From the IMG/VR virus record IMGVR_UViG_2690316131_000024: a DNA stretch of 32,435 nucleotides; one strand, 5' to 3'. This DNA is from a virus (lineage: Duplodnaviria > Heunggongvirae > Uroviricota > Caudoviricetes). Positions 1,958 through 17,362 of the stretch are shown piece after piece. The number at the start of each line of letters is the position of its first letter. The first letter of the stretch is position 1. Under the pieces are notes generated by a model, which had not been told where the DNA came from, searched no databases, and worked only from the letters and a program-made list of their open reading frames with translations. The translations under genes and the position numbers were made by a program.

Positions 1958-4405
1958 TTAACCGTCATGCATCATGCTGGCACGGGCGCGCGCACGTTTA
2001 TCCCGCTCGTATTTTTCGAGCGCATCCTGTAACTGGCGGTCGAGCTGTGTCCCCGGCGCAGTACCACCCGTCAGGCTGATGTGATATTCGTTTTTACTCT
2101 GGTCTACATAAGAGCGGCCAGCCGGTGCCGTGACCGGCTGATAAGCCTGATAACCTGCATAAGAGCTGGTCGCCGGAATATAACCACCGCTGCCATACGT
2201 GGCGGCTTGAGTTCTGGCGGCGGTCTGGTCAAGTGTGTCTGACTCTTTGTTGATAACACCGAGTTTTTCCAGTACCCAGTCAATACCACTGCGCAGTTTA
2301 TTGAACGCATTAAGCGGCAGCATCAGCGCGTCAGCCAGTGCCTGCCCGAACATGACGCCCGTGTCACGGCAACGGTTCAGGGTGTCCTGGGTGGCTTTGA
2401 CCGGGGCAATCAGGTTTTTAAACCACTGCCACGCGGCCTGTAACTTTTCACCCAGCCAGTCAAACACCGGTTTAAGTGGCGTGAACAGTTCCCCCACCGG
2501 CGCAAATGCCGCTTTCAGCCCTTCAACCACACCGCCAAAGAATGCGCTGACAGGCTCCCAGTATTTACGGATAAGCAACGCCCCGGCGACAATGGCGGCC
2601 ACCACGGCCACAACCGGCCAGCTAATCGCCCCGATGGCGGTTATAACAGCACTGCCAACCGTCGTGAAGATTGCCCCCATTGCGCCTGCTGCCGCGATGA
2701 TGGCATTGATGCCAGTGATAACCGGCCAGGCTACAAGACCAATTGCACCGATGATGCCAGTCAGCGCCAGCGCGCCACCGGCAATGAGGCCAATGGTTGA
2801 CGCCAGTGATTTGTTTTTCTGTATCCAGCCGTCGAGTTTTAACACATACTTTGTGGCCGTCTGTGTGAGCTTACGCAGTGCGCCTTCCTGCTGGTCAAAC
2901 AGGTCAGTCCCCACCGCCTCATAAGCGGACTGAAACTCCTTAAAGTCACCGCCGAGGTTGTCCTGCATGATATTTACCAGCTCTGCGGTCTTCCCGTCTG
3001 AGGCTTTAAACGCAGCGGTCAGTTTGTCCAGCTTTCCGGTTGACGCGGCAGTCATCAGCACGGCGGCGGCTGAGCTGGCCTCCTCCCCGAAAATAGTTTT
3101 CATGTATTCAGCCTGCTGGGCAGTACCGAGCCGGTTTTTCTCAAAACTGGCCTGCATTTCTTTCAGAATGGTAAATATTGGCCGGGTGTTTCCCTTGCTG
3201 TCTGAGGTTTTCACTCCAAGCTCTTTGAGTGCATCCCATGCTTTTCCCGTCGGTGCCTGCAGGCGGCTTAACACGGCACGGCTTCCCGTCCCCGCCATTG
3301 AGCCTGTGATTTTTGCATCATGCAGCGCCCCGACCATTGCGGCGGTTTCTTCAATGCTGACACCGGCATTTTTTGCCACAGGTGCGGCATAGGTCAGCGC
3401 ATCGCTCATGCCGTCAAAATCGGCGGCGGTTTTGTTCATCGTCATGGAGAGAACATCCCCGATATGAGCGACCTTATCGTTTGAAAGCTGAAAGGCGGAT
3501 TTCATCCCCATCAGCAGGGCGGCGTTTTCTTCCATCGTGCGGCGGTTCGCCAGCGCCATATTCAGCGTGACCGGCGTTGCCGCCTGAATGGCATCAACAT
3601 CCCCACCCGCTTTCGCGATGATTATCTGTGCACCGGCCGCATCATCCGCCGAGGCGGCGGTATTGTCGCCGAGCTGCCGCGCCTGTTTGCGGAGTGCGGT
3701 CATTTCGGCGGAGTCTTTTGCCACTCCGAGCACGGCCTGCAATTCTGAGTTTTTCTGCGCAAACTCATAACCGGGCATCAGCAGCTTAACTCCGGCCATC
3801 GTTCCCGCCGCCGCAATCCCCACACCGGCAGCGCCCACCGAGGCCATATTTCCGGCCAGTTCCTTTCCGGCCTGATAACGCTGTTTGACTGCGTTAAGTT
3901 TTGCCTGTTGCGCACTGACACGCGCCAGCGCGTCGCGCTGACGGTTAAGCTGTGCGGTGGTTTCACTGATACGGTTTTTCAGTCCCTGCTCATCATGTGC
4001 AAGATTGCGGGTATTAATTCCCACAGCGGCCAGTTCCCGCTGCTGGCGTTTAACGGAATCCGTCAGGCGGTTATATTTCGCCTGTAAGTCCTCCGCCGCA
4101 CGCTTTGCGGATTCCAGCACTTTCGCCTGAGCACGTGTCGGACGTTCGGTGTTTTTAAACTGTGTGGCAAGGGCTTCGGCCTCCTGCCGTGCCTTTTCAA
4201 GTGCATGACCAGTCACGGCGAGCTGTGCACTGGTCTTGCGAAATCCCTCAATACGGGATGCCTGACCGTTCAGCTCGCGCAGTGATTTTTGTGTTTCCCG
4301 GATATCCGCCGACAGCGATTTGCTCGCTGTGCGGATGGATTTAAACGGGCGGGATGCCTGGTCAACAGCCCTGAGCAATACCTGTAATTTTACATTGTTA
4401 CTCAT
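1958..4405 (-). CDS. T: Tail tape measure protein, 815 aa
   Basis: 815-aa Ala/Gly-rich protein with coiled-coil N-terminus and hydrophobic glycine-zipper segment, directly downstream of E/E'. Confidence 0.9.
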   Translation of the reverse strand: MSNNVKLQVLLRAVDQASRPFKSIRTASKSLSADIRETQKSLRELNGQASRIEGFRKTSAQLAVTGHALEKARQEAEALATQFKNTERPTRAQAKVLESAKRAAEDLQAKYNRLTDSVKRQQRELAAVGINTRNLAHDEQGLKNRISETTAQLNRQRDALARVSAQQAKLNAVKQRYQAGKELAGNMASVGAAGVGIAAAGTMAGVKLLMPGYEFAQKNSELQAVLGVAKDSAEMTALRKQARQLGDNTAASADDAAGAQIIIAKAGGDVDAIQAATPVTLNMALANRRTMEENAALLMGMKSAFQLSNDKVAHIGDVLSMTMNKTAADFDGMSDALTYAAPVAKNAGVSIEETAAMVGALHDAKITGSMAGTGSRAVLSRLQAPTGKAWDALKELGVKTSDSKGNTRPIFTILKEMQASFEKNRLGTAQQAEYMKTIFGEEASSAAAVLMTAASTGKLDKLTAAFKASDGKTAELVNIMQDNLGGDFKEFQSAYEAVGTDLFDQQEGALRKLTQTATKYVLKLDGWIQKNKSLASTIGLIAGGALALTGIIGAIGLVAWPVITGINAIIAAAGAMGAIFTTVGSAVITAIGAISWPVVAVVAAIVAGALLIRKYWEPVSAFFGGVVEGLKAAFAPVGELFTPLKPVFDWLGEKLQAAWQWFKNLIAPVKATQDTLNRCRDTGVMFGQALADALMLPLNAFNKLRSGIDWVLEKLGVINKESDTLDQTAARTQAATYGSGGYIPATSSYAGYQAYQPVTAPAGRSYVDQSKNEYHISLTGGTAPGTQLDRQLQDALEKYERDKRARARASMMHDG

Positions 4406-4577
4406 TCGTGTTTCCGCTTCGCCGGAGCGCCTTTTCGCGCCATGTGATGAGTTCGGTCAGGCTCATGGGATACAGTTCTGATGGCGGCCAGTGAAATATC
4501 ACTGCCACATCCGCCATCAGGTCATCGACCGAGAGATTTTTTGGAAACGTCACTGCACCGAGTTCGGCGACAAAAAA
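4398..4577 (-). CDS. E' extension, read in the -1 frame after slippage in the 3' end of E (gives gpE+E')
   Basis: Minus-strand mRNA reads GGT TTT TTG (T6G slippery run at + coords 4571..4579), 7 codons before the E stop. By hand translation the -1 frame stays open for about 58 codons to a TAA at 4398..4400 overlapping the T start. Confidence 0.6.
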   Translation of the reverse strand, partial: FFVAELGAVTFPKNLSVDDLMADVAVIFHWPPSELYPMSLTELITWREKALRRSGNTNE

Positions 4578-4825
4578 CCGACCACCTTACCGGCCAGCGC
4601 CACAAGGTCAGGCAGTTCCAGCGCGGCGACTTCCTGCTCGGTCAGCATCGGTGCCGTCATGCGCGGCAGCACCTTAATCAGTGCATCGACTTCGGAGTTT
4701 GCAACCGCAGCCAGACTGACACCGCGTAGCGTCCCGGCATTGGGTTTCATCAGCGTGACCTGTTCGATAACCTGCTCACCACGTTTGACCGGATTGTCCA
4801 GGGTAATGACATTTTCTTTGTTCAT
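4550..4825 (-). CDS. E: Tail assembly chaperone gpE, 91 aa
   Basis: 91-aa ORF between FII and T, same size and position as P2 gpE; ends ...KVVGFLSPNSVQ with the slippery site inside. Confidence 0.85.
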   Translation of the reverse strand: MNKENVITLDNPVKRGEQVIEQVTLMKPNAGTLRGVSLAAVANSEVDALIKVLPRMTAPMLTEQEVAALELPDLVALAGKVVGFLSPNSVQ

Positions 4826-4853
4826 GGTTTTCTCACTTCTGAATCAGGGTTAA

Positions 4854-4874
4854 CCGGCCAGCCAGGCTGACCGG
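4854..4874 (-). terminator. Imperfect GC-rich hairpin between FII and E (possible attenuator)
   Basis: ccggccagcc-a-ggctgaccgg forms a 9/10-bp stem immediately after the FII stop; no strong U-tract. Confidence 0.25.
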
Positions 4875-4881
4875 ATGAAAA

Positions 4882-5400
4882 TCACAGGCCGATATTGCGG
4901 CGGTGTTGCTCCAGCCGGTCGACGCCGTTCACCTTTTCAATCATGTTGATGGTGTCAATTTCGACCAGCTCCTTACCGTCCATCGTCAGCCGGAAATAGG
5001 TGCAGACCACGGAGATTTTCGACTCGGTGTCTTCTCCCTGTTTGCCCTCGCCGGTGTCGATTTCTTTCTGACGTCCACGCATGACCACTTCGACGGCCAC
5101 CGTTTCGCCGGTATCGTCGCGCTGGTAAGAGCCTGCAAAACGAATCGGCACGGCATCCACGCCGGTTGCGGCGTAAAGCTCCCAGATAACCGAATCCGGG
5201 AAACCACCGAGCGACCACTCCATTGACAGCGCATCGTCATCAAGGCCGAGGTCTACCGGTGCGCTGCCGTTCATCCCCGCACCGCGATAGTTTTCTAGCT
5301 TACGGGTCAGTTTTGGCAGCGTGACGGACTTTGCAACGCCCTGATAGCTGTAGCCGTTCAGAAAGACGTTCATTAACTTGAGTTTGCGCGGCATTGCCAT
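4882..5400 (-). CDS. FII: Tail tube protein FII, 172 aa
   Basis: 172-aa ORF directly downstream of the sheath gene, same length as P2 FII. Confidence 0.9.
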   Translation of the reverse strand: MAMPRKLKLMNVFLNGYSYQGVAKSVTLPKLTRKLENYRGAGMNGSAPVDLGLDDDALSMEWSLGGFPDSVIWELYAATGVDAVPIRFAGSYQRDDTGETVAVEVVMRGRQKEIDTGEGKQGEDTESKISVVCTYFRLTMDGKELVEIDTINMIEKVNGVDRLEQHRRNIGL

Positions 5401-5412
5401 CGGTCAGGCTCC

Positions 5413-6603
5413 TTAATTGCTGTTAACCGAGGTGACCAGATTTGCCAGGTATTTATCGGTAATACGCTGGCGCAGGGTCAGGTTTTCAAGAGGAGGCACC
5501 GGTGTATAGTCGTAGTCGATATACAGTTTTCCGGCCTTGAGGGTTTCCGCATCGTTGGATTCTTCGCTGAACCAGCAGGTCGCATCCACGATATAGCCGT
5601 TTGTTTTCAGCTCACGGAATTTGGCATTGATGCCGTCAACGATGTCGCGAATCAGCGTTGCGGTGATGGGCTTGTCCACCGCCCACATGTGCGCCTCAGC
5701 CATCGTGTCGGCCAGCACCTGCGCGGTGCGGGTGTAGTTTTCAAAGAGGAACAGCGGGTCATCAGAGCAGGTACGGTTACCCCAGAAGCGGAAACCGTCG
5801 CGGCGAATCAGCGTTGTGACGCCTGACTCGTTAAGCAGGTCAGCATCGGTGCCGGACTCCTGCAAATCCCAGAATACAGATGCGCTGATGCCGGTAACAC
5901 CGTTCACCCCGACGTTGGACAGCGTTTTATGCCAGCCCTGCTCCTGGTCGATTTTGGCACGCAGACCCAGCGCACGGGCGGTGGCATACGCGGTGGCGGT
6001 GGTACTGGTGACCGTATCCCATGCGAGGAAATCCGGCCAGATGACCATCAGCTCACGCTGGCTGAAATTCTGGCGGTAGGCTTTCACCTCGGAAATGGTC
6101 TTACAGCCCCATGCGCTGATATACCCGAAAGCGCGCAGCTTCTGACAGACTGATGCCAGTGCAACCGCCACCTCTTTGGTGTCCAGTCCCGGCACACCGA
6201 GAATACGCGGTTTAACACCGGTTACCGACTCCGCCGCCAGCAGGGCTTTTAGTCCGGTGTACTGACCGTTTTCGTCGGTGGTGCCGATGATATTGGAAAC
6301 GGTCTGCGCGAGTTTCGTTTCCTCGTCATCACCGGTGCCGTCTTCCACGCGCACGACAACGGTGACCGGTTTTGACTGGTCAGCGATGGCCTGCAACGAT
6401 GCCGCCAGCGTGCCTTTTTTACCGGCCTTTGCAATTGCGCTCTGCACATTGGTAATCAGCACAGGTTTATTGAGGGGGAAGGTTTCCGCATCCGCATCGC
6501 TGGCCGTGCAGACCATGCCGACAATGGCAGTGGATACGGTGGAAATGACGCGGGTGCCGTCGTTAATCTCCAGCACCTGCACGCCGTGATGATAGTCACT
6601 CAT
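5413..6603 (-). CDS. FI: Contractile tail sheath protein FI, 396 aa
   Basis: 396-aa ORF, same length and position as P2 FI; first gene of the FI-FII-E-T-U-D operon. Confidence 0.9.
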   Translation of the reverse strand: MSDYHHGVQVLEINDGTRVISTVSTAIVGMVCTASDADAETFPLNKPVLITNVQSAIAKAGKKGTLAASLQAIADQSKPVTVVVRVEDGTGDDEETKLAQTVSNIIGTTDENGQYTGLKALLAAESVTGVKPRILGVPGLDTKEVAVALASVCQKLRAFGYISAWGCKTISEVKAYRQNFSQRELMVIWPDFLAWDTVTSTTATAYATARALGLRAKIDQEQGWHKTLSNVGVNGVTGISASVFWDLQESGTDADLLNESGVTTLIRRDGFRFWGNRTCSDDPLFLFENYTRTAQVLADTMAEAHMWAVDKPITATLIRDIVDGINAKFRELKTNGYIVDATCWFSEESNDAETLKAGKLYIDYDYTPVPPLENLTLRQRITDKYLANLVTSVNSN

Positions 6604-6662
6604 CCGTTTAACTCCGTGGTTAATGGGTGAGTGGTATTTTCAGTTGTGCCGGAGATGTCAGG

Positions 6663-7262
6663 CTATTTGTCCCGGTTGGCTAAGGGATGACACAATTTAT
6701 TCTTTGTCGCTGATGAGGGAAATTTTTTATAGAGCGTGGACAGGCCAATATCAAAAATCAGCGCCACACGTTGACGAGATTCCCCCGCAGCCAGCAACCG
6801 TCCGACCTGCTCCCACTCACTCGCGGTGAGTTTCGGACGTCTGCCACCAATACGACCTTTGGCTCTGGCCGCTTCCAGTCCGGCGCGTGTCCGCTCGACA
6901 ATGAGTTCTCGCTCCATTTCAGCCAGGGCACCCATCACATGAAAGAAAAAACGCCCCATCGGCGTGCTGGTATCAATAGCATCCGTCAGACTGCGAAAAT
7001 TAACGCCGCGTTCGCGCAGTTCCTCAACCAGAATGACCAGATGCCGCATACTACGCCCCAGCCTGTCCAGCTTCCAGACTACCAGAGTGTCACCTGCTGA
7101 TAATGTTCTGAGCAGTTTTTTCAGTCCCGGTCTGTCGGACTTCGTGCCGCTGATTTTATCCTCAAAAATCCGCTCGCATCCTGCGCACTCCAGCGCGTTA
7201 CGCTGCAATTCCGTGTTCTGGTCATTTGTTGACACGCGTACATAGCCAATAAGCATGAGCAT
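6663..7262 (-). CDS. Serine DNA invertase (Gin/Cin/Pin/Hin family), copy 1
   Basis: N-terminus MLIGYVRVSTNDQNT with catalytic Ser motif, ...GRIGGRRPKL and a C-terminal HTH (ALIFDIGLSTLYKKF) typical of Hin-family invertases. First 193 aa identical to copy 2; reads 6 codons past the repeat boundary. True start may be the Met two codons in (7256). Confidence 0.88.
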   Translation of the reverse strand: MLMLIGYVRVSTNDQNTELQRNALECAGCERIFEDKISGTKSDRPGLKKLLRTLSAGDTLVVWKLDRLGRSMRHLVILVEELRERGVNFRSLTDAIDTSTPMGRFFFHVMGALAEMERELIVERTRAGLEAARAKGRIGGRRPKLTASEWEQVGRLLAAGESRQRVALIFDIGLSTLYKKFPSSATKNKLCHPLANRDK

Positions 7263-7330
7263 CCCCCTGAATAAAAACCGGAGATGATGCCAGTTGCCCG
7301 TTATCTCTGCATTTTCATAAACGTTGGTTT
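6683..7330. repeat. 648-bp direct repeat, copy 1 (invertase gene plus crossover site)
   Basis: Offset 1358 bp to 8041..8688; both boundary sequences were compared by eye, and the ORF translations on both strands inside the two copies are identical. Confidence 0.85.
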
Positions 7331-7337
7331 AAGAGCA
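7312..7337 (+). other. cix/gix/hix-like crossover site (site 2)
   Basis: TCATAAACG-TT-GGTTTAAGA; identity to the H-embedded site begins exactly at TTGGTTT, centred on the TT dinucleotide at 7324..7325. Confidence 0.7.
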
Positions 7338-7634
7338 AGCGGGCAGTACACCGATAATTTGTTATTTACAGGTCCTGATGGTCTTAAGATTCAGGTGTTT
7401 CGCCGGACGCTCGCAAATTTGACTACTGTCGGTGTAGTAAATTCTGTGCCAGTGACTTTCCCTGTCCCGTTCCCTGTTAATTGCTGGGGCGTTTTTTCTA
7501 CCAAATTAACATGGGTTCAGATAACTAACTCATGCGAGTGGGTAAGTAATACAGGATTTACCGCTCAGGTCATGATGAATATTGCTGTAAATACAAACAC
7601 CTCAGACGCTATGTTTTTAGCTATAGGATATTAA
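7324..7634 (+). CDS. Silent tail-fibre C-terminal cassette V1' (duplicate of the currently expressed H C-terminus)
   Basis: Translation LRASGQYTDNLLFTGPDGL...AMFLAIGY is identical to the last ~100 aa of H (10200..10510, minus strand). It has no N-terminal constant region and is only expressible after inversion. Confidence 0.8.
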
Positions 7635-7635
7635 T

Positions 7636-8040
7636 ATGAATCATTTTGTGTTCAGTCCATCTGAGTCCCGTTTTTATGCCATCGAGTGGCAGGCTGATTA
7701 TGTTGATAATAATTGTTGGCCACATGATGCCATTAACGTTAGTGACAGCATTTATTATGAGTTTTCCGGCACTCCCCCTACAGGTAAGCAACTTATAACT
7801 TTAAATAACATGCCAGCATGGGGTGATATTCCTCCACCTACACGAGAAGAATTAATTGTCGCTGCTGATGTGGAGAAGCAAAAAAGAATAGATTTAGCCA
7901 ATGATTACATGAACGGTAAGCAATGGCCTGGTAAAGCAGCTATTGGTCGTCTGAAAGGTGAGGAACTGGCACAATATAATTTGTGGCTGGATTATCTGGA
8001 CGCACTGGAGCTGGTCGATACCGCCAGTGCGCCAGATATT
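7636..8040 (+). pseudogene. Truncated duplicate of tail-fibre assembly gene tfa1 (tfa1'), fused by read-through into invertase repeat copy 2
   Basis: First 135 aa identical to tfa1 (9758..10198). Identity ends at ...ASAPDI at the repeat boundary; the last 11 aa of tfa1 are replaced by repeat-derived read-through up to 8187. Confidence 0.75.
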
Positions 8041-8620
8041 AGGGATGACACAATTTATTCTTTGTCGCTGATGAGGGAAATTTTTTATAGAGCGTGGACA
8101 GGCCAATATCAAAAATCAGCGCCACACGTTGACGAGATTCCCCCGCAGCCAGCAACCGTCCGACCTGCTCCCACTCACTCGCGGTGAGTTTCGGACGTCT
8201 GCCACCAATACGACCTTTGGCTCTGGCCGCTTCCAGTCCGGCGCGTGTCCGCTCGACAATGAGTTCTCGCTCCATTTCAGCCAGGGCACCCATCACATGA
8301 AAGAAAAAACGCCCCATCGGCGTGCTGGTATCAATAGCATCCGTCAGACTGCGAAAATTAACGCCGCGTTCGCGCAGTTCCTCAACCAGAATGACCAGAT
8401 GCCGCATACTACGCCCCAGCCTGTCCAGCTTCCAGACTACCAGAGTGTCACCTGCTGATAATGTTCTGAGCAGTTTTTTCAGTCCCGGTCTGTCGGACTT
8501 CGTGCCGCTGATTTTATCCTCAAAAATCCGCTCGCATCCTGCGCACTCCAGCGCGTTACGCTGCAATTCCGTGTTCTGGTCATTTGTTGACACGCGTACA
8601 TAGCCAATAAGCATGAGCAT
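8039..8620 (-). CDS. Serine DNA invertase (Gin/Cin/Pin/Hin family), copy 2
   Basis: 193 aa, identical to copy 1 over its whole length; its stop codon spans the repeat boundary. Confidence 0.88.
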   Translation of the reverse strand: MLMLIGYVRVSTNDQNTELQRNALECAGCERIFEDKISGTKSDRPGLKKLLRTLSAGDTLVVWKLDRLGRSMRHLVILVEELRERGVNFRSLTDAIDTSTPMGRFFFHVMGALAEMERELIVERTRAGLEAARAKGRIGGRRPKLTASEWEQVGRLLAAGESRQRVALIFDIGLSTLYKKFPSSATKNKLCHP

Positions 8621-8688
8621 CCCCCTGAATAAAAACCGGAGATGATGCCAGTTGCCCGTTATCTCTGCATTTTCATAAACGTTGGTTT
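8041..8688. repeat. 648-bp direct repeat, copy 2 (invertase gene plus crossover site)
   Basis: See copy 1; the repeat ends at TTGGTTT, after which V1' (aagagc...) and V2 (gggaga...) diverge. Confidence 0.85.
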
Positions 8689-8695
8689 GGGAGAA
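8670..8695 (+). other. cix/gix/hix-like crossover site (site 3)
   Basis: TCATAAACG-TT-GGTTTGGGA; same left half as site 2, right half belongs to V2. Confidence 0.7.
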
Positions 8696-9184
8696 GGCTC
8701 TGCATTACCGGTTGGGGTGCCTGTTCCGTGGCCTTCAGCCACTCCGCCAACAGGCTGGCTGAAATGCAACGGTGCCGCTTTTTCTGCTGAAGAATACCCG
8801 GAACTGGCAAAGGCTTATCCGACAAATAAATTGCCTGATTTACGTGGTGAGTTTATTCGTGGCTGGGATGACGGGCGTGGTATTGATGCTGTACGTGCCT
8901 TGCTAAGTCTTCAGAATGGAGGAGTGGAATCACACACCCACCAAGGGCAGCTCTTCAGAGTTAGTGATTATCGTACAAAAGAAATACCAGCATCAGAAGT
9001 TATGGGAAGAGGATATATTGCAAGCCTGACGCCGGGTGCTGATAGCCCACTTGATTTTGATGATTATTCTGTATCTTCTAATCCAAATGGATATTTTGTC
9101 GGGAATCAGAGAACAACAGCATATGGGATAAATGAAACCCGTCCACGGAATATTGCATTTAACTATATCGTGAGGGCTGCATAA
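8684..9184 (+). CDS. Alternative tail-fibre C-terminal cassette V2 (receptor-binding segment)
   Basis: In frame with the crossover site; translation GEGSALPVGVPVPWPS...GEFIRGWDDGRGID...NETRPRNIAFNYIVRAA is a typical P2/Mu-type fibre C-terminus. No start of its own; expressed only when joined to H by inversion. Confidence 0.8.
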   Translation, partial: GLGEGSALPVGVPVPWPSATPPTGWLKCNGAAFSAEEYPELAKAYPTNKLPDLRGEFIRGWDDGRGIDAVRALLSLQNGGVESHTHQGQLFRVSDYRTKEIPASEVMGRGYIASLTPGADSPLDFDDYSVSSNPNGYFVGNQRTTAYGINETRPRNIAFNYIVRAA

Positions 9185-9786
9185 TGGATAACGCTGTATT
9201 AAATAGCGAGTTTATTGCTACAAAGGCGGGGAATATTACCGTCTATAACTATGATGGCGAAACACGGGAATATATTTCCACATCAACTGAATATCTTGCC
9301 GTTGGTGTCGGTATCCCTGCATATTCCTGTTTAGATGCCCCTGTCACATACAAAGCTGGTTATGCAATCTGCCGATCTGTAGATTTTAACTCATGGGAAT
9401 ATGTGCCAGACCATCGCGGTGAAATCGTCTTTAGCACCGAAACAGGAGAATCAAAAGAAATCACAGTTCCGGGTGATTACCCTGATAATACAACCACTAT
9501 CGCCCCGTTAACGCCATACGATAAATGGGATGGTGAGAAATGGGTGACGGATACCGAAGCACAGCATAGCGCCGCAGTAGATGCAGCAGAAGCACAGCGC
9601 CAGTCACTGATTGATACTGTAATGGCTTCAATCAGTCTGATTCAGCTGAAATTGCAGGCCGGACGTAAACTGACGCAGGCAGAAACAACCAGCCTTAACA
9701 CTGTGCTGGATTACATTGACGCGGTGACAGCAACAGATACGAGCACCGCGCCGGATGTCATCTGGCCTGAACTGCCGGAGGCGTAG
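9184..9786 (+). CDS. Tail-fibre assembly chaperone for V2 (tfa2), 200 aa
   Basis: Immediately follows V2 with stop/start overlap; conserved Tfa C-terminal region; converges with tfa1 with 3' overlap. Confidence 0.8.
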   Translation: MDNAVLNSEFIATKAGNITVYNYDGETREYISTSTEYLAVGVGIPAYSCLDAPVTYKAGYAICRSVDFNSWEYVPDHRGEIVFSTETGESKEITVPGDYPDNTTTIAPLTPYDKWDGEKWVTDTEAQHSAAVDAAEAQRQSLIDTVMASISLIQLKLQAGRKLTQAETTSLNTVLDYIDAVTATDTSTAPDVIWPELPEA

Positions 9787-10198
9787 GCCATTCAATATCT
9801 GGCGCACTGGCGGTATCGACCAGCTCCAGTGCGTCCAGATAATCCAGCCACAAATTATATTGTGCCAGTTCCTCACCTTTCAGACGACCAATAGCTGCTT
9901 TACCAGGCCATTGCTTACCGTTCATGTAATCATTGGCTAAATCTATTCTTTTTTGCTTCTCCACATCAGCAGCGACAATTAATTCTTCTCGTGTAGGTGG
10001 AGGAATATCACCCCATGCTGGCATGTTATTTAAAGTTATAAGTTGCTTACCTGTAGGGGGAGTGCCGGAAAACTCATAATAAATGCTGTCACTAACGTTA
10101 ATGGCATCATGTGGCCAACAATTATTATCAACATAATCAGCCTGCCACTCGATGGCATAAAAACGGGACTCAGATGGACTGAACACAAAATGATTCAT
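9758..10198 (-). CDS. G: Tail-fibre assembly chaperone (gpG-like, tfa1), 146 aa, currently in the expressed orientation
   Basis: Directly downstream of H with start/stop overlap; position equivalent to P2 G. Confidence 0.85.
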   Translation of the reverse strand: MNHFVFSPSESRFYAIEWQADYVDNNCWPHDAINVSDSIYYEFSGTPPTGKQLITLNNMPAWGDIPPPTREELIVAADVEKQKRIDLANDYMNGKQWPGKAAIGRLKGEELAQYNLWLDYLDALELVDTASAPDIEWPTPPAVQAR

Positions 10199-10199
10199 A

Positions 10200-11336
10200 T
10201 TAATATCCTATAGCTAAAAACATAGCGTCTGAGGTGTTTGTATTTACAGCAATATTCATCATGACCTGAGCGGTAAATCCTGTATTACTTACCCACTCGC
10301 ATGAGTTAGTTATCTGAACCCATGTTAATTTGGTAGAAAAAACGCCCCAGCAATTAACAGGGAACGGGACAGGGAAAGTCACTGGCACAGAATTTACTAC
10401 ACCGACAGTAGTCAAATTTGCGAGCGTCCGGCGAAACACCTGAATCTTAAGACCATCAGGACCTGTAAATAACAAATTATCGGTGTACTGCCCGCTTGCT
10501 CTTAAACCAAGGTATGTGAGAAGACCAGCTACATCCTTTCCACTCAAATTAGTCAGCGTCTCATCCAGTGGCTGCTTACCTGACAGCGCATTGTTAATGG
10601 TGGTGCTGAATTTCGGGTCATTGTTAATGGCCGCGGCAATTTCTTTCAGTGTGTCCAGCGTGTCTGGCGCGCCGTTAATCAGAGCGGTAATAGCGGCCTG
10701 AACAAACTCAGTGGTCGCAATCCGCGTGGTGTTATTTCCTGCGGCAGGCGTCGGCGCTTTTGGTTCTCCGGTAAATGTCGGATTATGTTTCTGCGCATAC
10801 TGGGTATGAGGATCCTGTGCGACAATGTGGTTTCTCATCTGGTCATCCACATACAGCTTTAATTCCAGGACTTCATCATCCACGTATTTACGGGTCGCCA
10901 GTACCACCGACGGGTCGATTTTCAGCGTAATAGCTTCGGTATTCGTGACAACCAGAATCATGCGGATAGTCTGGGTACGACCACTGCCTTCCTGTAACTG
11001 CGGTTTGTACGTTTCCGGGCAGTTCGCCACCGCAATGAGTACGCCTTCATCATCATAAAGCCCAATCTCACGGATCCAGAATCCGCCCTCGTTCTCAGGG
11101 ATGATTTGCTCCGCAATAATCTGGCTCTGGTTGTTCGGGTCAACACTCAGAAGATTCAGCGGCGCGATGCGTTTCTGGTTAATCAGTTTTGTCTGTGCCG
11201 GGTCTGGTGTCGGCAAGACACCATTCGCATCACCAACGGCCATTTGCGTCAGATTCAGCTTACTGCCGAGCATCGTCGCGTTAGCCAGCCGTGCTGCGCC
11301 CTGATTAGTCAGAATGGCGTAGTATTTCACTGTCAT
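10200..11336 (-). CDS. H: Tail fibre protein H (constant N-terminus plus invertible C-terminal segment V1), 378 aa
   Basis: N-terminus MTVKYYAILTNQGAARLANA...MAVGDANG resembles the P2 H / Mu S N-terminus; the C-terminal ~100 aa lie beyond the embedded crossover site at ~10510. Confidence 0.88.
   Translation of the reverse strand: MTVKYYAILTNQGAARLANATMLGSKLNLTQMAVGDANGVLPTPDPAQTKLINQKRIAPLNLLSVDPNNQSQIIAEQIIPENEGGFWIREIGLYDDEGVLIAVANCPETYKPQLQEGSGRTQTIRMILVVTNTEAITLKIDPSVVLATRKYVDDEVLELKLYVDDQMRNHIVAQDPHTQYAQKHNPTFTGEPKAPTPAAGNNTTRIATTEFVQAAITALINGAPDTLDTLKEIAAAINNDPKFSTTINNALSGKQPLDETLTNLSGKDVAGLLTYLGLRASGQYTDNLLFTGPDGLKIQVFRRTLANLTTVGVVNSVPVTFPVPFPVNCWGVFSTKLTWVQITNSCEWVSNTGFTAQVMMNIAVNTNTSDAMFLAIGY
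10497..10522 (-). other. cix/gix/hix-like crossover site embedded in H (site 1), inverted relative to sites 2 and 3
   Basis: On the minus strand TCACATACC-TT-GGTTTAAGA; right half identical to site 2, left half from the H constant region, i.e. the hybrid sites expected after past inversion. Confidence 0.7.
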
Positions 11337-11944
11337 GCGTTTACTCTCAGGTTATCAATTAAATGAATGGCCGAGGCCGGGAAATAATCCCCTCCGACAA
11401 TAATGGCCTCCGGGGTGTAGGGATAAACCGTCAGGGCGTCGCCGTGATAGCATCCCGCACCGGCAAAAATGTTGCCGGTTGTACTTAAACTGATAGCCAG
11501 TCCCGTCAGATGGCGGCTCGCCGGTTTTGCATCAGCAACGAGGCGCTCCAGCTCCTGATACATTTCTTCGGTAATACCCTGCTCAAGCACGCCAACAACG
11601 ATACGGAACGTCCCCGGCTCCTCGTTGAGCTGCCACCACTCCCTCACCTCAATCAGATAGCCGAGCGGCTCCACCACACGCCGGATTGCACCTATAGTGC
11701 CTTTATGACAGTGAATGAAATACGCATCGCGGATAACAGCGCGTTTTGTCGCTTCCGGCCACTTATCATCCCAGCGGTCAACCGAAAATGACCACGCCAG
11801 CCACGGCAGCAGATTTGCCTGGCAGGTATCCGGGTTCCACAGTTCACGAATACTGACCGGCGTTTTTTCAATTTCCGCACAGGCTTTTGCGGCGGCGACT
11901 TCAAGCGGTGATGAGCCGGTCGGCAGCAGGCGCGAATCACTCAT
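11333..11944 (-). CDS. I: Baseplate protein I, 203 aa
   Basis: Between J and H with overlapping stop/start codons on both sides; order J-I-H as in P2. Confidence 0.85.
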   Translation of the reverse strand: MSDSRLLPTGSSPLEVAAAKACAEIEKTPVSIRELWNPDTCQANLLPWLAWSFSVDRWDDKWPEATKRAVIRDAYFIHCHKGTIGAIRRVVEPLGYLIEVREWWQLNEEPGTFRIVVGVLEQGITEEMYQELERLVADAKPASRHLTGLAISLSTTGNIFAGAGCYHGDALTVYPYTPEAIIVGGDYFPASAIHLIDNLRVNA

Positions 11945-12845
11945 CCGAGCCTCCGGTCACGACGCGGTATTCGGTGCAGAAAGACGCCTGCGTGCTGTTA
12001 AGCACGATATCGGCCAGCGGTGCAGCCAGTTCGACACGCTGCACGCCTTCCACATGCAAAGCGGCATAAATGGCAGACAGACGGATGTCGCGCCCCAGCC
12101 GGTGCTGTGCCGTGATGTACGCTTCCAGCTTTTTCACGGCGGCGGCGCGGATGGGTTCGCTTTCGGGACCAGGGTAAAGGTAAAGCGTGGCGTTTATCTG
12201 GTATTCAACGATGGCGGCAGACTGCACGGTCACGCGGTCGGCCACCGGCCTGACGTCCTCGCCATTAAGGGCATTACGCACCACCGCCAGCAGGTCTTCG
12301 GATGCGACACCGTTATTTTCACGTGACAGCACAGAGATGGTGACGCAGGCCGGAGAAGGACTGGTGACAGAGATATCCGCGACACGCCCGTCGGCACTTC
12401 GACCATGATACTGATAGGCCCCCACCGACCCGGCGACGCTTAAACCTTCAAACGCCTGCTGAATACGCAGACGATAATCGGTGTCAGATTCCATCACGGC
12501 CGGTGTCGGCGGGATAGTCGAATCATCTGCCGGGGTGATAATCAGGCGCGTGGTGTTGTAATTGGCACCAATCACATCAAGGTCATTACCGGCAGCACAG
12601 GCCAGCATCACCGCCCGTGCGGCCTCATTCACACGCTGACGCCAGATAAGCTCACGATAAGCATTTTCCTCCAGCAGTTTGACGAGAGGCTCAGATTCCA
12701 GCGTCAGGGTACGGGCGACCGCCTCCTGCTGGTCTTCCGGGTAAAGGGAAATCAGTGTCGCCTTGCGTTCGGCAAGAATGGTTTCAAAGTCCAGCTCCTC
12801 GACCACATCCGGTGCGGGTAGCTGGTTCAGGTCGATAATCGGCAT
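11937..12845 (-). CDS. J: Baseplate wedge protein J, 302 aa
   Basis: 302-aa ORF, same length and position as P2 gpJ. Confidence 0.88.
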   Translation of the reverse strand: MPIIDLNQLPAPDVVEELDFETILAERKATLISLYPEDQQEAVARTLTLESEPLVKLLEENAYRELIWRQRVNEAARAVMLACAAGNDLDVIGANYNTTRLIITPADDSTIPPTPAVMESDTDYRLRIQQAFEGLSVAGSVGAYQYHGRSADGRVADISVTSPSPACVTISVLSRENNGVASEDLLAVVRNALNGEDVRPVADRVTVQSAAIVEYQINATLYLYPGPESEPIRAAAVKKLEAYITAQHRLGRDIRLSAIYAALHVEGVQRVELAAPLADIVLNSTQASFCTEYRVVTGGSDE

Positions 12846-12849
12846 GGTT

Positions 12850-13197
12850 TCAACTCACAGGGATGGTTAACGAAAGTGGCTGGCCGGTGTCGTTGTGCTG
12901 GCCGGTTAACGTGACCGTCATTCGCCCGTCAAAACTGCGCTCAGTGGTGACGGATGACAGGGTGACGCGGGGTTCCCATTTCAGCACCGCCATGTAACAG
13001 GCGACCTTAATCTGCAACTCAAGCGCCGGGGTCTGCGGCTGGTCAATCATTGATGCCAGCAACGAGCCGTAATCACGACGCATCACCCGTGAGCCGACCG
13101 GTGTGCGCAGGATATCGCCGATACTCTGGCTGATATGCTCAAGGTCAGTGACAGTCTGGCCATCACTGCGATTCATTCCGAGATAACGCGCTGTCAT
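12850..13197 (-). CDS. W: Baseplate protein W, 115 aa
   Basis: 115-aa ORF between V and J, same length as P2 gpW. Confidence 0.85.
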   Translation of the reverse strand: MTARYLGMNRSDGQTVTDLEHISQSIGDILRTPVGSRVMRRDYGSLLASMIDQPQTPALELQIKVACYMAVLKWEPRVTLSSVTTERSFDGRMTVTLTGQHNDTGQPLSLTIPVS

Positions 13198-13829
13198 AAA
13201 GGACTCCCGGTTGTGCCGCCGCTGTCGCCGGGGTGTTTGTGGGTATGCAGTACCTTACCGTTTGATGAGAGTTCACCGCCGGTGTGTTCAATGTTGCCGC
13301 GCATCGTCCCGCCCTTCTGCACTTCCAGCGTGCCGGTAGTCAGTTTGTTAGTGCAGACCACTTCCGGTGTGTCCAGGGTGACACGGGTTGACGCTTTCAC
13401 CGTGACCACCGGTACCGTGGCAGTAACAGAATCAGAAGCCGTCACGCTGGCCGTTTTAATTCCGCTTACCGTGAGTGCACTGGTTTCGGGTTCATACTCA
13501 ATCACCGCCCCGTCAGGGAAACGGATATGCAGGGCATCCGCCGACGCAGACGGCGCGGGGTTATCGCCGGAATAAATCCCCGGCAGAACGAACGCCGTGT
13601 CGAGTTCACCGCCCACGGACAGAATCAGCACCTGTTCCCCCACGGAAGGTGCCCACCATGTGCGCGAACGACCGGCGCGATGGGTCAGCCACTGAAGCCA
13701 GTCAGTGCACATGCCGCCGGTCTGCACACGGCAGCGACCGGCGTTAAGGTCGGTTTCGACGACAAGGCCGGTGCGGATCATGTTGCGCAGTGCGCGCGCG
13801 AGTTCCTGAATATTTGCGAGAGTGTTCAT
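13194..13829 (-). CDS. V: Baseplate spike protein V, 211 aa
   Basis: 211-aa ORF, N-terminus MNTLANIQELARALRNMIRTG, same length as P2 gpV; first gene of the V-W-J-I-H-G operon. Confidence 0.9.
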   Translation of the reverse strand: MNTLANIQELARALRNMIRTGLVVETDLNAGRCRVQTGGMCTDWLQWLTHRAGRSRTWWAPSVGEQVLILSVGGELDTAFVLPGIYSGDNPAPSASADALHIRFPDGAVIEYEPETSALTVSGIKTASVTASDSVTATVPVVTVKASTRVTLDTPEVVCTNKLTTGTLEVQKGGTMRGNIEHTGGELSSNGKVLHTHKHPGDSGGTTGSPL

Positions 13830-13840
13830 AACGGGAAGGA

Positions 13841-13864
13841 TGCCGCCGGGTCATACCGGCGGCA
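13841..13864 (-). terminator. Perfect 9-bp GC-rich hairpin between S and V (candidate terminator for the O..S operon)
   Basis: tgccgccgg-gtcata-ccggcggca, followed on the minus strand by a pyrimidine-rich stretch; sits at the boundary between two P2 late operons. Confidence 0.4.
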
Positions 13865-13895
13865 ATGTGACGATGAGGTGTCGGGAATGGCACAA

Positions 13896-14348
13896 CTAAC
13901 GGTCGAGGTGCGCCAGAATAATCTCTTCAATCATCTGCACATCCTCACCGGTAAAGCCGAGCAGGGGACGCGCCGGATAATCAATTTTCTTACCGTCTTT
14001 CCGGTTTTCTTCCGACAGACCGAACTGATGCACACTGGCGATTTTCGGTGACTTTCCGCCGTAAAATTCCATTGATGCCTGTTCCGGGCTGGCGCGGATA
14101 TGCAAAAAACGACTGGTGATAAGTTTCGCAAACATTTTTCGCTTAACACGACCAGTCTTTTTTCTGGCGCTCTGCTGCTGGCGTGGCACGTAGGGTGTGC
14201 CGTCCGGGGCTTTCTGAGCCATCACCCGACGCTGCTGACTCTGCCGCAGACGCTTCGCCAGCTCTGCACTCAGCCGCCGACGCCCTGACGGTGACAGCGA
14301 TTCAATAAGTCCGGTCAGCCGGTCTTCAAAACGCTTAAACTCATTCAT
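13896..14348 (-). CDS. S: Tail completion protein S, 150 aa
   Basis: 150-aa ORF, same length and position as P2 gpS; overlaps R by 8 nt. Confidence 0.85.
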   Translation of the reverse strand: MNEFKRFEDRLTGLIESLSPSGRRRLSAELAKRLRQSQQRRVMAQKAPDGTPYVPRQQQSARKKTGRVKRKMFAKLITSRFLHIRASPEQASMEFYGGKSPKIASVHQFGLSEENRKDGKKIDYPARPLLGFTGEDVQMIEEIILAHLDR

Positions 14349-14808
14349 CCCACTTGCTCACCAGTTCGCCATTGATATAAAGCTCCACCGGGCGGGTGAC
14401 CGGCTCCGGCGGCGGAGGTTCCGGGATATTCTTCACATGCAGTGCGCCATCCACCTCACTGACCAGCGTGCGCTCGGTCAGCATCAGGCTGATGCTGATA
14501 TCAAAGCTGCTGTCATTGTTGATGTCCGCATAAAACGTGAAGCCCTTTTTCTGGCCTTCGTCGGTGGTCATGATGTCGGGCTGATTTTCCCGCAGCCACG
14601 CCAGCACCGGCACGATGAGCAGGTCAAAATCACCGGTAAAGTCGGTCACAATGACATTGAGCGTGTAACGCTTTTCAAATGACAGCGACGTCGCCAGTGT
14701 GGAGGCAATACTCCCGTTATCCACGAATATCCGCAGCATCTCGGGACTGGTTTTCAGCACCGTGACGGCATCAGTCAGCGCCCTGCGCAGGCTGTCGGGT
14801 TTGAGCAT
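14341..14808 (-). CDS. R: Tail completion protein R, 155 aa
   Basis: 155-aa ORF, same length and position as P2 gpR. Confidence 0.85.
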   Translation of the reverse strand: MLKPDSLRRALTDAVTVLKTSPEMLRIFVDNGSIASTLATSLSFEKRYTLNVIVTDFTGDFDLLIVPVLAWLRENQPDIMTTDEGQKKGFTFYADINNDSSFDISISLMLTERTLVSEVDGALHVKNIPEPPPPEPVTRPVELYINGELVSKWDE

Positions 14809-15061
14809 CGTTTTCGTCCTGACAGTGTTTAATCATTTTTACCTGGCTGGCACAGCGTGCCAGCGCGTTCTCAAGCTGTCGGATATCGGCACTTAAATCG
14901 CCGTTCGTCTCCGGGTCACTGCCCGGCATCGGGCAAAGGCTCACTTTCGGGCAGGCGTTGGCGACAATCACTGGCGTCGGTGCAGGCCGGGCGCTGGTGC
15001 AACCGGCGCACAGCATCAGGCAGGCCAGCGCCGTACCAGTGGCGAAAATCTTCGTTTTCAT
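14771..15061 (-). CDS. lysC: LysC, Rz1-like outer-membrane lipoprotein (o-spanin), 96 aa
   Basis: Signal peptide ending in a lipobox (LMLCAGC), Pro-rich mature part; begins inside lysB in another frame and extends into R, as in P2. Confidence 0.75.
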   Translation of the reverse strand: MKTKIFATGTALACLMLCAGCTSARPAPTPVIVANACPKVSLCPMPGSDPETNGDLSADIRQLENALARCASQVKMIKHCQDENDAQTRQPAQGAD

Positions 15062-15341
15062 TCAGTAACCTCGTGATGGTTTTCTCGCGCTGTGCTTCAC
15101 GCTTCGCCGCGTTCTCCAGTTCCTGACGCAGTGCCACCTGCGCCAGCTCGTTTTTGTCTGCCCTGGTGATGGCAACATGAAGCTGATTTTTCAGCATGGT
15201 GATGGTCGTCTGCTGTTCACTGGCGACGTTATTCGCCCTGTCCAGCGAGGCGCGCAGGCTGGCATTTTTGTGTTTCATCAGAAACAGACCGGCCACCGCC
15301 AGTGATAACAACACAACCAGCACAATCATCAGCTTTGACAT
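14916..15341 (-). CDS. lysB: LysB, Rz-like inner-membrane spanin (i-spanin), 141 aa
   Basis: N-terminal transmembrane helix followed by a charged coiled-coil region; same length and position as P2 LysB. Confidence 0.8.
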   Translation of the reverse strand: MSKLMIVLVVLLSLAVAGLFLMKHKNASLRASLDRANNVASEQQTTITMLKNQLHVAITRADKNELAQVALRQELENAAKREAQREKTITRLLNENEDFRHWYGAGLPDAVRRLHQRPACTDASDCRQRLPESEPLPDAGQ

Positions 15342-15754
15342 GGTTCCCGCCCCTCAAAACGCTGACGGCAGGCCGTACGTATCAGCCGGAAGAACACCGA
15401 TGCCACGAGATAAATCAGCGCGGTAAAAATCCACCCGGCGGCAACCAGCGAGATAAACGTCGCCACCATCACCACCAGAGCCGCCGCCCGTCTGCACCAC
15501 GGCACCGGCTGCAAAAACAGCGACGTGACAATCTTCACGGCCAGCGATTCCGGCGGCAGCTCCCGCCCGTAGCGTTCCAGCACATACTCAGTGGCATACA
15601 CGCCGACACCACCGGCAACCACACAGATAACCGTCGCCAGAATCGCCCAGGCGGCGACAAAATTGACGGCCACGCTCTGCGGGTAAATCAGGGACAGTGC
15701 CAGCATCAGCGCCAGCGACACGTTCAGCATCAGTGAAAGGGATAATTTCTTCAT
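15329..15754 (-). CDS. lysA: LysA membrane protein (lysis timing / antiholin-like), 141 aa
   Basis: Polytopic hydrophobic 141-aa protein between K and lysB, same length as P2 LysA. Confidence 0.8.
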   Translation of the reverse strand: MKKLSLSLMLNVSLALMLALSLIYPQSVAVNFVAAWAILATVICVVAGGVGVYATEYVLERYGRELPPESLAVKIVTSLFLQPVPWCRRAAALVVMVATFISLVAAGWIFTALIYLVASVFFRLIRTACRQRFEGREPCQS

Positions 15755-15768
15755 GGTGTTTACTCCGT

Positions 15769-16266
15769 TTAAGCCGGTACGCCGCCGGCGGTACGCCAGA
15801 CGGTGACCAGTTTTTCCAGTGAATGCTCACGCTGACCGTAACCGGCACCCGGCAGGGACGCCCAGATATTGCGACAGCGTGAAATGGCGCGCTCAATGCG
15901 TCCCGCCCGGATGTCATCCAGTGCACCGCGTTCGCGGATCAACTGAATGGCGAGCCTGTCCTGTGACAACGGACTGAAATCCGGCAGGGCAAGCTGTTTG
16001 CGGTAGTGCGGCCAGAACAGGTAAAGCTGCTGATAGCGACCGGAGGCCGTGGATTTTTCACCGCGACGGTTAAACACCTTCGCCGGTCGGCCATGCGCGA
16101 ACGGGTGGTCACTGTAGTCGGTGAAGATTTCCGGCTTTCCGTCCAGTCCGGTGACTATCACGTCATAGCCCCGGTTTTTCGTCAGCGGATGATTCGCCGT
16201 CCCTTCGGACACGGCCAGCATGTCGAGAAAGGCGGCGATATTCTGATGCGTGTTAATTACCGGCAT
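15769..16266 (-). CDS. K: Endolysin (lysozyme) K, 165 aa
   Basis: 165-aa ORF immediately downstream of the holin, same length and position as P2 K. Confidence 0.88.
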   Translation of the reverse strand: MPVINTHQNIAAFLDMLAVSEGTANHPLTKNRGYDVIVTGLDGKPEIFTDYSDHPFAHGRPAKVFNRRGEKSTASGRYQQLYLFWPHYRKQLALPDFSPLSQDRLAIQLIRERGALDDIRAGRIERAISRCRNIWASLPGAGYGQREHSLEKLVTVWRTAGGVPA

Positions 16267-16547
16267 TACGGTTTCCCCCTGCCCTTAAAGCGGCGCTGAA
16301 TGGCAATCTCAATCACCTGATAACCGGCGATACCCAGCATGGAGCCGATGCCGCACACCGCAGGCAGTGACAGGTCAGGAAACTGCACCAGAACAACACC
16401 GGCAACCATCGAGACAAAACCACCGAGCAACATGCGCCCGATAAACAGACGCGGGGTGATGGGTTCACCACCGGCAAGCACCTTGCCGACAACAATCAGC
16501 ACCCCAATCATGAAAAGCGACAGGACGCTTTTTTCTTCTGCTGTCAT
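16266..16547 (-). CDS. Y: Holin Y, 93 aa
   Basis: 93-aa protein with transmembrane segments and a charged C-terminus, same length and position as P2 Y. Confidence 0.85.
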   Translation of the reverse strand: MTAEEKSVLSLFMIGVLIVVGKVLAGGEPITPRLFIGRMLLGGFVSMVAGVVLVQFPDLSLPAVCGIGSMLGIAGYQVIEIAIQRRFKGRGKP

Positions 16548-16550
16548 GCG

Positions 16551-16754
16551 TTACTCCCACAGATTGACAGTTTCAGCCACGGGCGCGGTCTGAACGTCGG
16601 GCAGTTCGACGGCGGTGCCGTGCGGCAGCACCGCGCCCAGTTCAGCCAGTCCCGGATTTGCGGCGAGCACGGCTTCGACCACGCCCTCAGTGCGCCCGTA
16701 ATACCGGACACAGATGGCGTCGAGCGTGTCGCCCTGTAGCGCAAAGGTCTTCAT
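16551..16754 (-). CDS. X: Tail protein X (LysM-like), 67 aa
   Basis: MKTFALQGDTLDAICVRYYGRTEG...; start taken at the internal Met of the 90-aa ORF so that it abuts L with overlapping stop/start. Confidence 0.8.
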   Translation of the reverse strand: MKTFALQGDTLDAICVRYYGRTEGVVEAVLAANPGLAELGAVLPHGTAVELPDVQTAPVAETVNLWE

Positions 16755-17263: not shown

Positions 17264-17362
17264 GACTACCTCTGAAAAGTCGGGCGGTGGACGCCGGTGC
17301 AGTGTCAGGTGATTCACCCTCACTGACCGGCGTGCCGCCCTGGCGCGGGGCGCATTCGGTTG

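Follow-up and report, generated by a model that had tools for sequence, protein, structure and literature searches.

The tail-fibre region described here lies in a window (the whole stretch of DNA that was analysed) of 32,435 nucleotides. Its conserved left flank is a gene for a tail sheath protein of the P2 FI type (5413..6603, minus strand), a 396-aa open reading frame; same-length neighbours in relatives have the Pfam domain Phage_sheath_1. Beside it is a gene for a serine DNA invertase of the Gin/Hin/Cin/Pin type (6663..7262, minus strand), the one real invertase gene of the locus, with the native C-terminus ...LANRDK. Pfam domains Resolvase (PF00239) and HTH_7 (PF02796) are found on the identical 197-aa protein, and residues 1-182 match the Mu Gin structures 3UJ3/4M6F (phmmer, E=4e-94). 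In the assembly collection, 2419 blocks contain the 197-aa form (6663-7256); of these, 10 places are listed, and at all 10 the gene is single-copy beside the sheath gene.

To the right of the invertase is crossover site S1 (7312..7337, plus strand), which reads TTTTCATAAACG TT GGTTTAAGAGCA, with the central TT at 7324-7325. It is a hybrid of the kind found in the flipped or B state, with a left half from the invertase side and a right half from the V1 fibre-tip cassette. V1 is present here in its B state (7284..7634, plus strand), promoterless, and from 7324 on is the exact reverse complement of 10200-10510. It is followed by the chaperone gene tfa1 (tail-fibre assembly) in B-state orientation (7636..8040, plus strand), the exact reverse complement of 9794-10198. 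This tfa1 is cut after ...APDI at 8040, the end of the left-hand of two contigs that meet at this point. The right-hand, A-state contig starts with a second representation of the invertase gene (8042..8620, minus strand), 100% identical to 6684-7262. Site S2 (8670..8695, plus strand) reads TTTTCATAAACG TT GGTTTGGGAGAA, combines the invertase side with V2, and is in the A state the genuine left-hand site. In this state the alternative fibre tip, V2 (8642..9184, plus strand), is silent; the cassette is a 180-aa open reading frame with a Collar domain (PF07484), which Pfam places on the reading frame in the public contig and on a 179-aa form in relatives. Its chaperone gene tfa2 (9184..9786, plus strand; 200 aa, Pfam Caudo_TAP_N and Caudo_TAP in relatives) is convergent with, and overlaps by 29 bp, the tfa1 chaperone gene for V1 in its expressed orientation (9758..10198, minus strand; 146 aa, Pfam Caudo_TAP in relatives). 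The tail-fibre gene H (10200..11336, minus strand) encodes 378 aa and consists of a constant N-terminal part and the V1 tip, which is the A state; the exact protein is found in 8 contigs, with Pfam domains Phage_tail_fib and Gp53-like_C. Within it is S3, the real right-hand site (10497..10522, minus strand), which in minus-strand reading is TTCTCACATACC TT GGTTTAAGAGCA, joins the H constant part to V1, and is inverted relative to S2. Both S2 and S3 (minus strand) contain TTGGTTT, which includes the central TT; the sites have a TAAAC-NN-GGTTT-like core, comparable to gix and hix.

The sequence-only reading had reported 648-bp direct repeats and an inverted duplicate of the expressed cassette, and self-comparison of the window bears out both: 6683-7330 and 8041-8688 match at 648 of 648 positions, with differing bases on the flanks of either copy, and 7324-8040, when reverse-complemented, is identical to 9794-10510 (717 of 717). 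Inverted similarity reaches back from 7324 to 7312 with 4 mismatches and so spans the crossover site. The inverted copy does end 8 bp beyond the tfa2 stop (at 9786), as had been noted. Repeats of 648 and 717 bp at such identity are far beyond chance. Since the public record has an N at 8041, the direct repeat is more correctly given as 647 bp plus that one position. The statement that each direct repeat carries a full invertase gene and a crossover site does not hold for the second gene: the repeat begins 20 nt within the 3' end of the first copy (open reading frame 6663-7262), so that the last six native codons (...LANRDK) are missing from the second copy. The TAA stop of that copy (8039-8041) is made by the junction itself.

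What is the DNA at this junction? Window positions 2284-17336 match the GenBank WGS contig CYDD01000040.1 (GCA_001284925.1) at every base but one: at 8041 the public record has N, its sole N in the 15,053 bases compared, and the window has a filler A. Positions 8040 and 8042 of the window correspond to 14810 and 14812 of that record. The stop codon of the second invertase copy is accordingly NAA in CYDD01000040.1, whose precomputed gene call reads on through this codon as X and reaches 224 aa. The feature at 8041..8041 (no strand) is a scaffold join, and the junction 8040/8041, on which a three-site arrangement depends, is not sequenced DNA. A mere ambiguous base call is a very unlikely reading of the N (about 1 in 15,000 by position alone), as the N sits exactly at the only non-canonical junction of the region. 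No microhomology is present at the junction in the window sequence, which argues against an overlap join in a de Bruijn graph and against microhomology-mediated recombination alike; it fits a blunt scaffold join.

The junction is also missing from independent genomes. A megablast search with 7940-8140 gave no junction-spanning match in 5,426 complete E. coli genomes or in 50,697 phage records, and the alignments to both break off exactly at 8040/8041. A 26-mer across the junction has no exact match in the GTDB representative genomes, IMG/VR or the JGI metagenomes; this 26-mer carried the filler A of the window, and the source record itself was thus unable to match. No exact-protein record was found for the tfa1' fusion (a 183-aa read-through open reading frame) or for the products of 'invertase copy 2' (193 and 191 aa), because the public record has N where the window has A. 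The native context of the inverted copy's end, 9694-9894, is unbroken in 2021 complete E. coli genomes, and the second native context is also common and unbroken (603 genomes). The V1' reading frame of 116 aa was examined in 21 contigs: in 20 of these it adjoins a single invertase, and CYDD01000040.1 is the only one duplicated among the matches listed.

Deletion of 1358 bp (6683-8040) restores the canonical layout without indels. The collapsed sequence is gaplessly collinear with four single-invertase relatives (L013, L014, L016 and L017) in alignments of as much as 13,137 bp at 98.0-98.5% identity, and each of these relatives has the identical 378-aa fibre and one invertase. An in-silico inversion of the collapsed sequence, with exchange at the TT in the middle of each of its two sites, gives a product that equals window 6400-8040 exactly, S1 included, and is gaplessly collinear with real flipped-state relatives, among them the complete genome CP147059.1. 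Sequence 5' of the N is thus exactly the flipped (B) state of a standard two-site Gin-type switch, and sequence 3' of the N is exactly the unflipped (A) state, restarting within the same invertase gene. The V1 cassette at 7284-7634 is a second representation of 10200-10510 and no second physical copy. It had been pointed out from the sequence that a simple inversion would not create the junction, and this is correct: the sole junction impossible by inversion is the single-N scaffold join, flanked by exact B and A states. The alternative of an assembly artefact, offered alongside that observation, is hence the favoured one. Complete identity of the two copies is as expected for one locus written twice.

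Apart from the duplication, the region has the makings of a Gin/Hin/Cin/Pin-type switch. The recombinase is of the serine type, with a resolvase catalytic domain at its N-terminus and a helix-turn-helix at its C-terminus; two inverted sites of about 26 bp (S2 and S3) bound the segment, and in-silico exchange at their central TT yields the B-state sequence seen; and alternative tips with their chaperones point in opposite directions within the segment, which leaves out the constant N-terminus of the fibre. Both orientations occur in nature: H has 378 aa in A-state relatives and 442 aa in B-state relatives, in which its constant part continues into V2. Both inversion states also occur within the CYDD01000040.1 assembly itself. 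By analogy with Gin and Hin, a Fis-dependent recombinational enhancer would be expected in cis, in the 5' part of the invertase gene. In all likelihood the window represents an E. coli prophage of the P2 type (Peduovirus), whose tail-fibre switch is an ordinary one of the Mu-G/P1-C type.

The Mu G/Gin, P1 C/Cin and e14 P/Pin systems are alike in that one serine invertase adjoins the invertible segment, two inverted 26-bp sites bound it, and it contains two opposed tips, each with its own Tfa, but not the constant N-terminal fibre part. In contrast to Mu and P1, the phage here is P2-like (Peduovirus), and its invertase module has the fibre genes on one side and sheath gene FI on the other; functionally, there is no difference from the three systems once the artefact is removed. 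Close too, at 94-98% DNA identity, are P2-like E. coli prophages and phages with an invertase; hundreds of E. coli chromosomes carry one, and Escherichia phage pro483 and 'phage P2' of the O157:H43 strain T22 are further examples. These prophages and phages have the same gene order (sheath, invertase, site, V'/tfa', tfa/V, site, H), and both orientation states are found among their assemblies, but none has the 1358-bp duplication or the tfa1'/invertase junction. Comparison with closely related prophages had been proposed as a check on the arrangement, and it shows close relatives with a single invertase and without the duplication. Phage vB_EcoM-813R1, with its annotated 'Hin1/Hin2', was considered as a case of real duplicated invertases and rejected; it has one cin-like gene split into two open reading frames.

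How did one switch come to be written twice? Very probably, the two orientations of one two-site switch, both present in the culture, were joined over a scaffold gap that contains no sequence. The invertase most likely flips the segment of about 1.8 kb (V1/tfa1 and V2/tfa2) in part of the culture, and the sequenced DNA would then contain both orientations. One contig would run from the sheath gene through the invertase and site to the flipped V1 and tfa1, ending at 8040; the other would begin in the invertase gene (8042) and continue through the site to the unflipped V2, tfa2, tfa1, V1 and H. A scaffolder may then have set the contigs head to tail with a single N, which the window writes as A. 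The 'second invertase', the 'silent V1'/tfa1' copy' and 'site 1' would be the same physical DNA written twice. The second invertase gene and the third crossover site are thus almost certainly an assembly artefact.

For a negative gap, the scaffolder SSPACE inserts a single n. False joins are produced by greedy scaffolders and by gap fillers, which mark joins with N (PMC5320598), and GapFiller extends both gap edges and closes the gap only when the extensions overlap (PMC3446322). The present case is like misjoins of the SSPACE/GapFiller type (PMC5320598, PMC3446322), in which truly overlapping contigs with mismatched ends are joined by N, what the contigs share shows up as two exact copies, and no other genome supports the junction. 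A literature search by accession found no paper on the assembly pipeline of CYDD01/GCA_001284925.1; that the join was made by a scaffolding or gap-filling step is inferred, as is the match of GCA_001284925.1 to the behaviour of a particular tool. The left edge of the repeat (6683/6684) is the end of homology to invertase-less P2-like prophages, and its right edge (7330) is the crossover site, so that the 647-bp block is bounded by two known points of sequence divergence. These edges would be branch points of the assembly graph only if the isolate had a second, invertase-less P2-like prophage. No recognisable repeat or homology boundary was found at the left contig's end, 8040 (= 9794). A homology boundary with paralogous tfa genes was considered for this end and rejected, since relatives are identical past it to 9753 or 9741.

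Where did the two states come from? The same scaffold artefact would arise if they belonged to two P2-like tail regions in one genome (a double lysogen or a tandem duplication), one copy per state, collapsed by the short-read assembler everywhere but at the switch. There is a precedent in the complete genome LS992171.1, which appears twice among the 10 invertase places listed: its tail module is repeated 18 kb away, and the two modules have identical invertases, lie 18,278 bp apart and are in opposite inversion states (L002/L003). In many E. coli genomes there is more than one related locus (median 2, maximum 13 places), and 6683/6684, as a module boundary between different P2-like prophages, would be a graph branch point if a second such prophage were present. 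However, no evidence points to a second copy in the isolate of GCA_001284925.1; the two states show no difference across 647 and 717 bp, for which one flipping locus is a simpler source than two diverging copies; and mixed orientation is the documented norm in clonal cultures (PMC4272514). Two physical copies are therefore rather unlikely. Clonal E. coli cultures hold both orientations of the fibre segments of P2-like prophages (PMC4272514), and a mixed culture is probably the origin of both states here.

The junction might instead be real, made by illegitimate recombination between flipped and unflipped sister chromosomes that duplicated 1358 bp. One molecule would then have two invertase genes and three sites in a shufflon-like arrangement, and the N would stand for one base left unresolved. 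A true duplication would likewise lead the scaffolder to place the contigs adjacent in this order, and true three-site inversion systems with four coexisting variants are known in P2-like E. coli prophages (PMC4272514). A real junction would, however, have read coverage and be assembled through, whereas this one is an N without sequence; it has zero microhomology and is absent from every genome, phage and metagenome collection searched, and all close relatives have the single-copy layout. The 'third cassette', an identical V1 copy with a truncated chaperone, would bring no new specificity. Directly repeated sites are also, from general knowledge, not efficiently recombined by invertases of the Gin/Hin family. 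A real structural variant is thus highly improbable. The duplicated invertase with a shufflon-like, three-site arrangement that the sequence-only reading had put forward finds no support, as S1 is tied to S2 and S3 only across the N, and the two rearrangements derived from it, a 3.2-kb flip carrying an invertase gene and deletion or re-duplication between the direct sites, fall with the same scaffold join at 8040/8041. If true, the locus could flip this 3.2-kb block together with the invertase gene, and the block could be lost or regained by recombination between the 647-bp direct repeats; even so, its interest would be modest, that of a very recent duplication without added fibre specificity.

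Min of plasmid p15B and the R64 shufflon are multi-site inversion systems with several fibre or pilus-tip variants. The system that had been suspected here is of the kind found as a three-IR shufflon in the P2-like prophage of EPEC E2348/69 (PMC4272514), with more than two sites and several fibre variants. The EPEC E2348/69, Min and R64 systems have one recombinase gene and at least three different cassettes in sequenced-through DNA; in contrast, the 'third site' and 'third cassette' of the window are identical copies linked only through an N. Three or more sites are not linked on one sequenced molecule, as the N lies between S1 and S2/S3, and there are no more than two different cassettes, 7324-8040 being 100% identical to V1/tfa1. 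No third crossover site was found in the relatives examined. The three-site system is no real feature, and the real one is a switch of a type already known, with one invertase, two sites and two cassettes.

Invertible tail-fibre segments from mixed cultures can enter draft assemblies as exact duplications that mimic new multi-site recombination systems, and this calls for caution. In the window the telltale N has been replaced by a normal base, which even makes a false stop codon. The presence of both states in the data of one isolate suggests that the Gin-type invertase of the prophage is active, an activity already documented in P2-like E. coli prophages (PMC4272514). Of the other genes of the window, that for a 652-aa cargo protein is common, with 3344 blocks in which it is found.

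The duplicated invertase and three-site arrangement proposed by the sequence-only reading is almost certainly not a real feature. The repeats on which it was built are present in the window text, and both are exact. A direct repeat of 648 bp is formed by 6683-7330 and 8041-8688, and 7324-8040 is the reverse complement of 9794-10510 (717 bp). The bases that flank the direct repeat are unlike on either side, and its left edge has no microhomology; the inverted repeat shows partial similarity reaching back to 7312, across the crossover site. The gene layout of 5413-11336, taken from an ORF map of the window, runs from the sheath gene FI (5413-6603, minus) through invertase copy 1 (6663-7262, minus), V1' (7284-7634, plus), tfa1' (from 7636, plus), a second invertase, copy 2 (8039-8620, minus), the fibre-tip cassette V2 (8642-9184, plus), its chaperone gene tfa2 (9184-9786, plus) and tfa1 (9758-10198, minus) to the fibre gene H, which ends in V1 (10200-11336, minus). 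The convergent tfa1 (minus) and tfa2 (plus) overlap by 29 bp at their 3' ends (9758-9786), and about 2000 complete genomes of E. coli preserve this overlap in contiguous sequence. The claim that each repeat carries a full invertase gene does not hold. The repeat begins within copy 1, 20 nt from its 3' end, so copy 2 is without the final six native codons, and its apparent stop, TAA at 8039-8041, is made by the junction.

What, then, is the junction 8040|8041, the only one in the arrangement that inversion cannot yield? Looking up the 378-aa fibre protein as an exact match gave eight contigs, the source contig among them. CYDD01000040.1 (GenBank WGS, GCA_001284925.1) has the duplicated layout; the other contigs shown have one invertase. 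Base by base, window 4200-17336 differs from CYDD01000040.1 solely at 8041, where the deposited record has an N, and the same lone difference is seen between window 2284-12634 and a second, independently fetched stretch of the contig. The window consists of A, C, G and T only, without any N, while the matching record has N at 8041; evidently, therefore, the N was swapped for an A during window preparation. This filler A at 8041 gives 'invertase copy 2' its false TAA stop. The public precomputed gene call that crosses the junction yields 224 aa with an X at the junction codon, and exact-protein look-up found no record of the products of 191, 193 and 183 aa that follow from the A in the window. 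Because the sole window/record difference is this N, and the public product has X there, 8040|8041 is best read as a one-N scaffold join and not as sequenced DNA. Of the alignments of 7940-8140 to complete genomes of E. coli and to phage records, none spans the junction; all end at 8040/8041. A 26-mer across it, bearing the A that fills 8041 in the window, has no match in GTDB representative genomes, IMG/VR or JGI metagenomes. The two native contexts, by contrast, run without a break in 2021 and 603 complete genomes. The duplication occurs in none of 5,426 complete E. coli genomes, where related loci span ~3.1 kb, not 4.4 kb.

The 26-bp crossover sites are S1 (7312-7337, TTTTCATAAACG-TT-GGTTTAAGAGCA), S2 (8670-8695, TTTTCATAAACG-TT-GGTTTGGGAGAA) and S3 (10497-10522, minus, TTCTCACATACC-TT-GGTTTAAGAGCA). 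S1 is the exact hybrid predicted from an S2 x S3 exchange at the central TT. When 6683-8040 is taken out, the collapsed sequence aligns to four single-invertase relatives with zero gaps, over up to 13,137 bp and at 98.0-98.5% identity. An in silico flip of it at the central TT equals window 6400-8040 exactly; once flipped, it is collinear, without gaps, with relatives that are really in the flipped state, among them the complete genome CP147059.1. From these alignments and the exact flip, the window has the B (flipped) state as far as 8040; an N follows, and after it the sequence resumes in the A (unflipped) state at the point that corresponds to 6684. The real overlap of the two contigs would be 647 bp, with their ends mismatched because each follows another orientation. 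These results do not support the three-site, two-invertase reading. The assembly artefact, which had been offered as the alternative, is supported by that N, by the composition and by the absence of the junction elsewhere.

How might the join have originated? In clonal E. coli cultures, fibre segments of P2-like prophages are present in both orientations (PMC4272514). Greedy scaffolding and gap-filling of short reads can produce false joins and put N at joins (PMC5320598). GapFiller builds an extension from either edge of a gap, which is closed only when the two overlap (PMC3446322). Extensions along different orientations would never overlap, and a scaffolder would join contigs without merging them where a true overlap exists but the ends mismatch. 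Both edges of the duplicated invertase block are known points of sequence divergence: the right edge is a crossover site, and the left edge, 6683/6684, is exactly where, just downstream of the sheath gene, invertase-less P2-like prophages cease to be homologous. Strain GN4738 (NZ_CM177114.1) has a DUF3800 gene beyond this point in place of the invertase. The end of homology implies that the invertase module occupies a variable cargo site next to FI, where P2 has its Z/fun locus. The 6683/6684 edge would be an assembly-graph branch only if the isolate held a second, invertase-less P2-like prophage. No repeat or homology boundary was recognised at the left contig end, 8040 (= 9794), which falls directly after the APDI codons of tfa1; relatives are still identical for 40-50 bp more.

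The same artefact could stem from two physical tail-module copies, one in each state, instead of a mixed culture. LS992171.1 is such a genome, its two copies being separated by 18,278 bp and oppositely oriented at the switch; for this isolate we consider such an origin unlikely. Less probable still is a real duplication with the N hiding one base, which needs a blunt junction that lacks microhomology and occurs in no other genome searched, and a coincidental N at exactly the junction base. In LS992171.1, a complete E. coli chromosome, both P2-like tail modules (2951787-2990658) carry the identical invertase, and an IS21 element sits inside the invertible segment of each copy. Its repeat reflects either a genuine tandem duplication of part of the prophage or a comparable artefact of long-read assembly.

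The underlying real feature is a standard Gin/Cin/Pin/Hin-type tail-fibre switch, already known, in the version common in P2-like E. coli prophages. The window is an entire P2-like (Peduovirus) prophage that extends from ogr (1-282) as far as the integrase gene (31425-32435); over the remaining 22 kb it shares 97-98% identity with P2-like phages of E. coli. The invertase belongs to the Gin family of serine recombinases (Pfam Resolvase and HTH_7; Mu Gin crystal structures matched, E=4e-94). Blocks of the assembly collection with an identical 197-aa invertase number 2419, and at 10 of the 10 places shown one copy has the sheath gene on one side and an invertible fibre segment with two cassettes on the other; two of these places are from LS992171.1, its tail module being repeated 18 kb away. 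True multi-site systems differ in that one invertase serves different cassettes in continuous sequence, as in a P2-like prophage of EPEC, where three IRs give four variants (PMC4272514). The window locus is not of this kind: S1 is connected to S2 and S3 only through the N, and the extra cassette (7324-8040) is an exact copy of V1/tfa1. In the P1-like phage vB_EcoM-813R1 (ON470617.2, 30363-30934), the adjacent 'Hin1' and 'Hin2' are fragments of 333 and 252 nt; they were rejected as two invertases, being one cin-like gene split in two.

The prophage also has a cargo locus between the portal gene and replication gene A (23502-26654; 23.5-26.7 kb). It encodes a 652-aa HATPase_c_3 protein (plus) and a DNA cytosine methylase of ~350-383 aa (minus), annotated as ParaMORC3 and Dcm in the related phage PhiR44_1. 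The assembly collection lists the exact 652-aa protein in 3344 blocks, and each of the ten places shown lies in a P2-like prophage.
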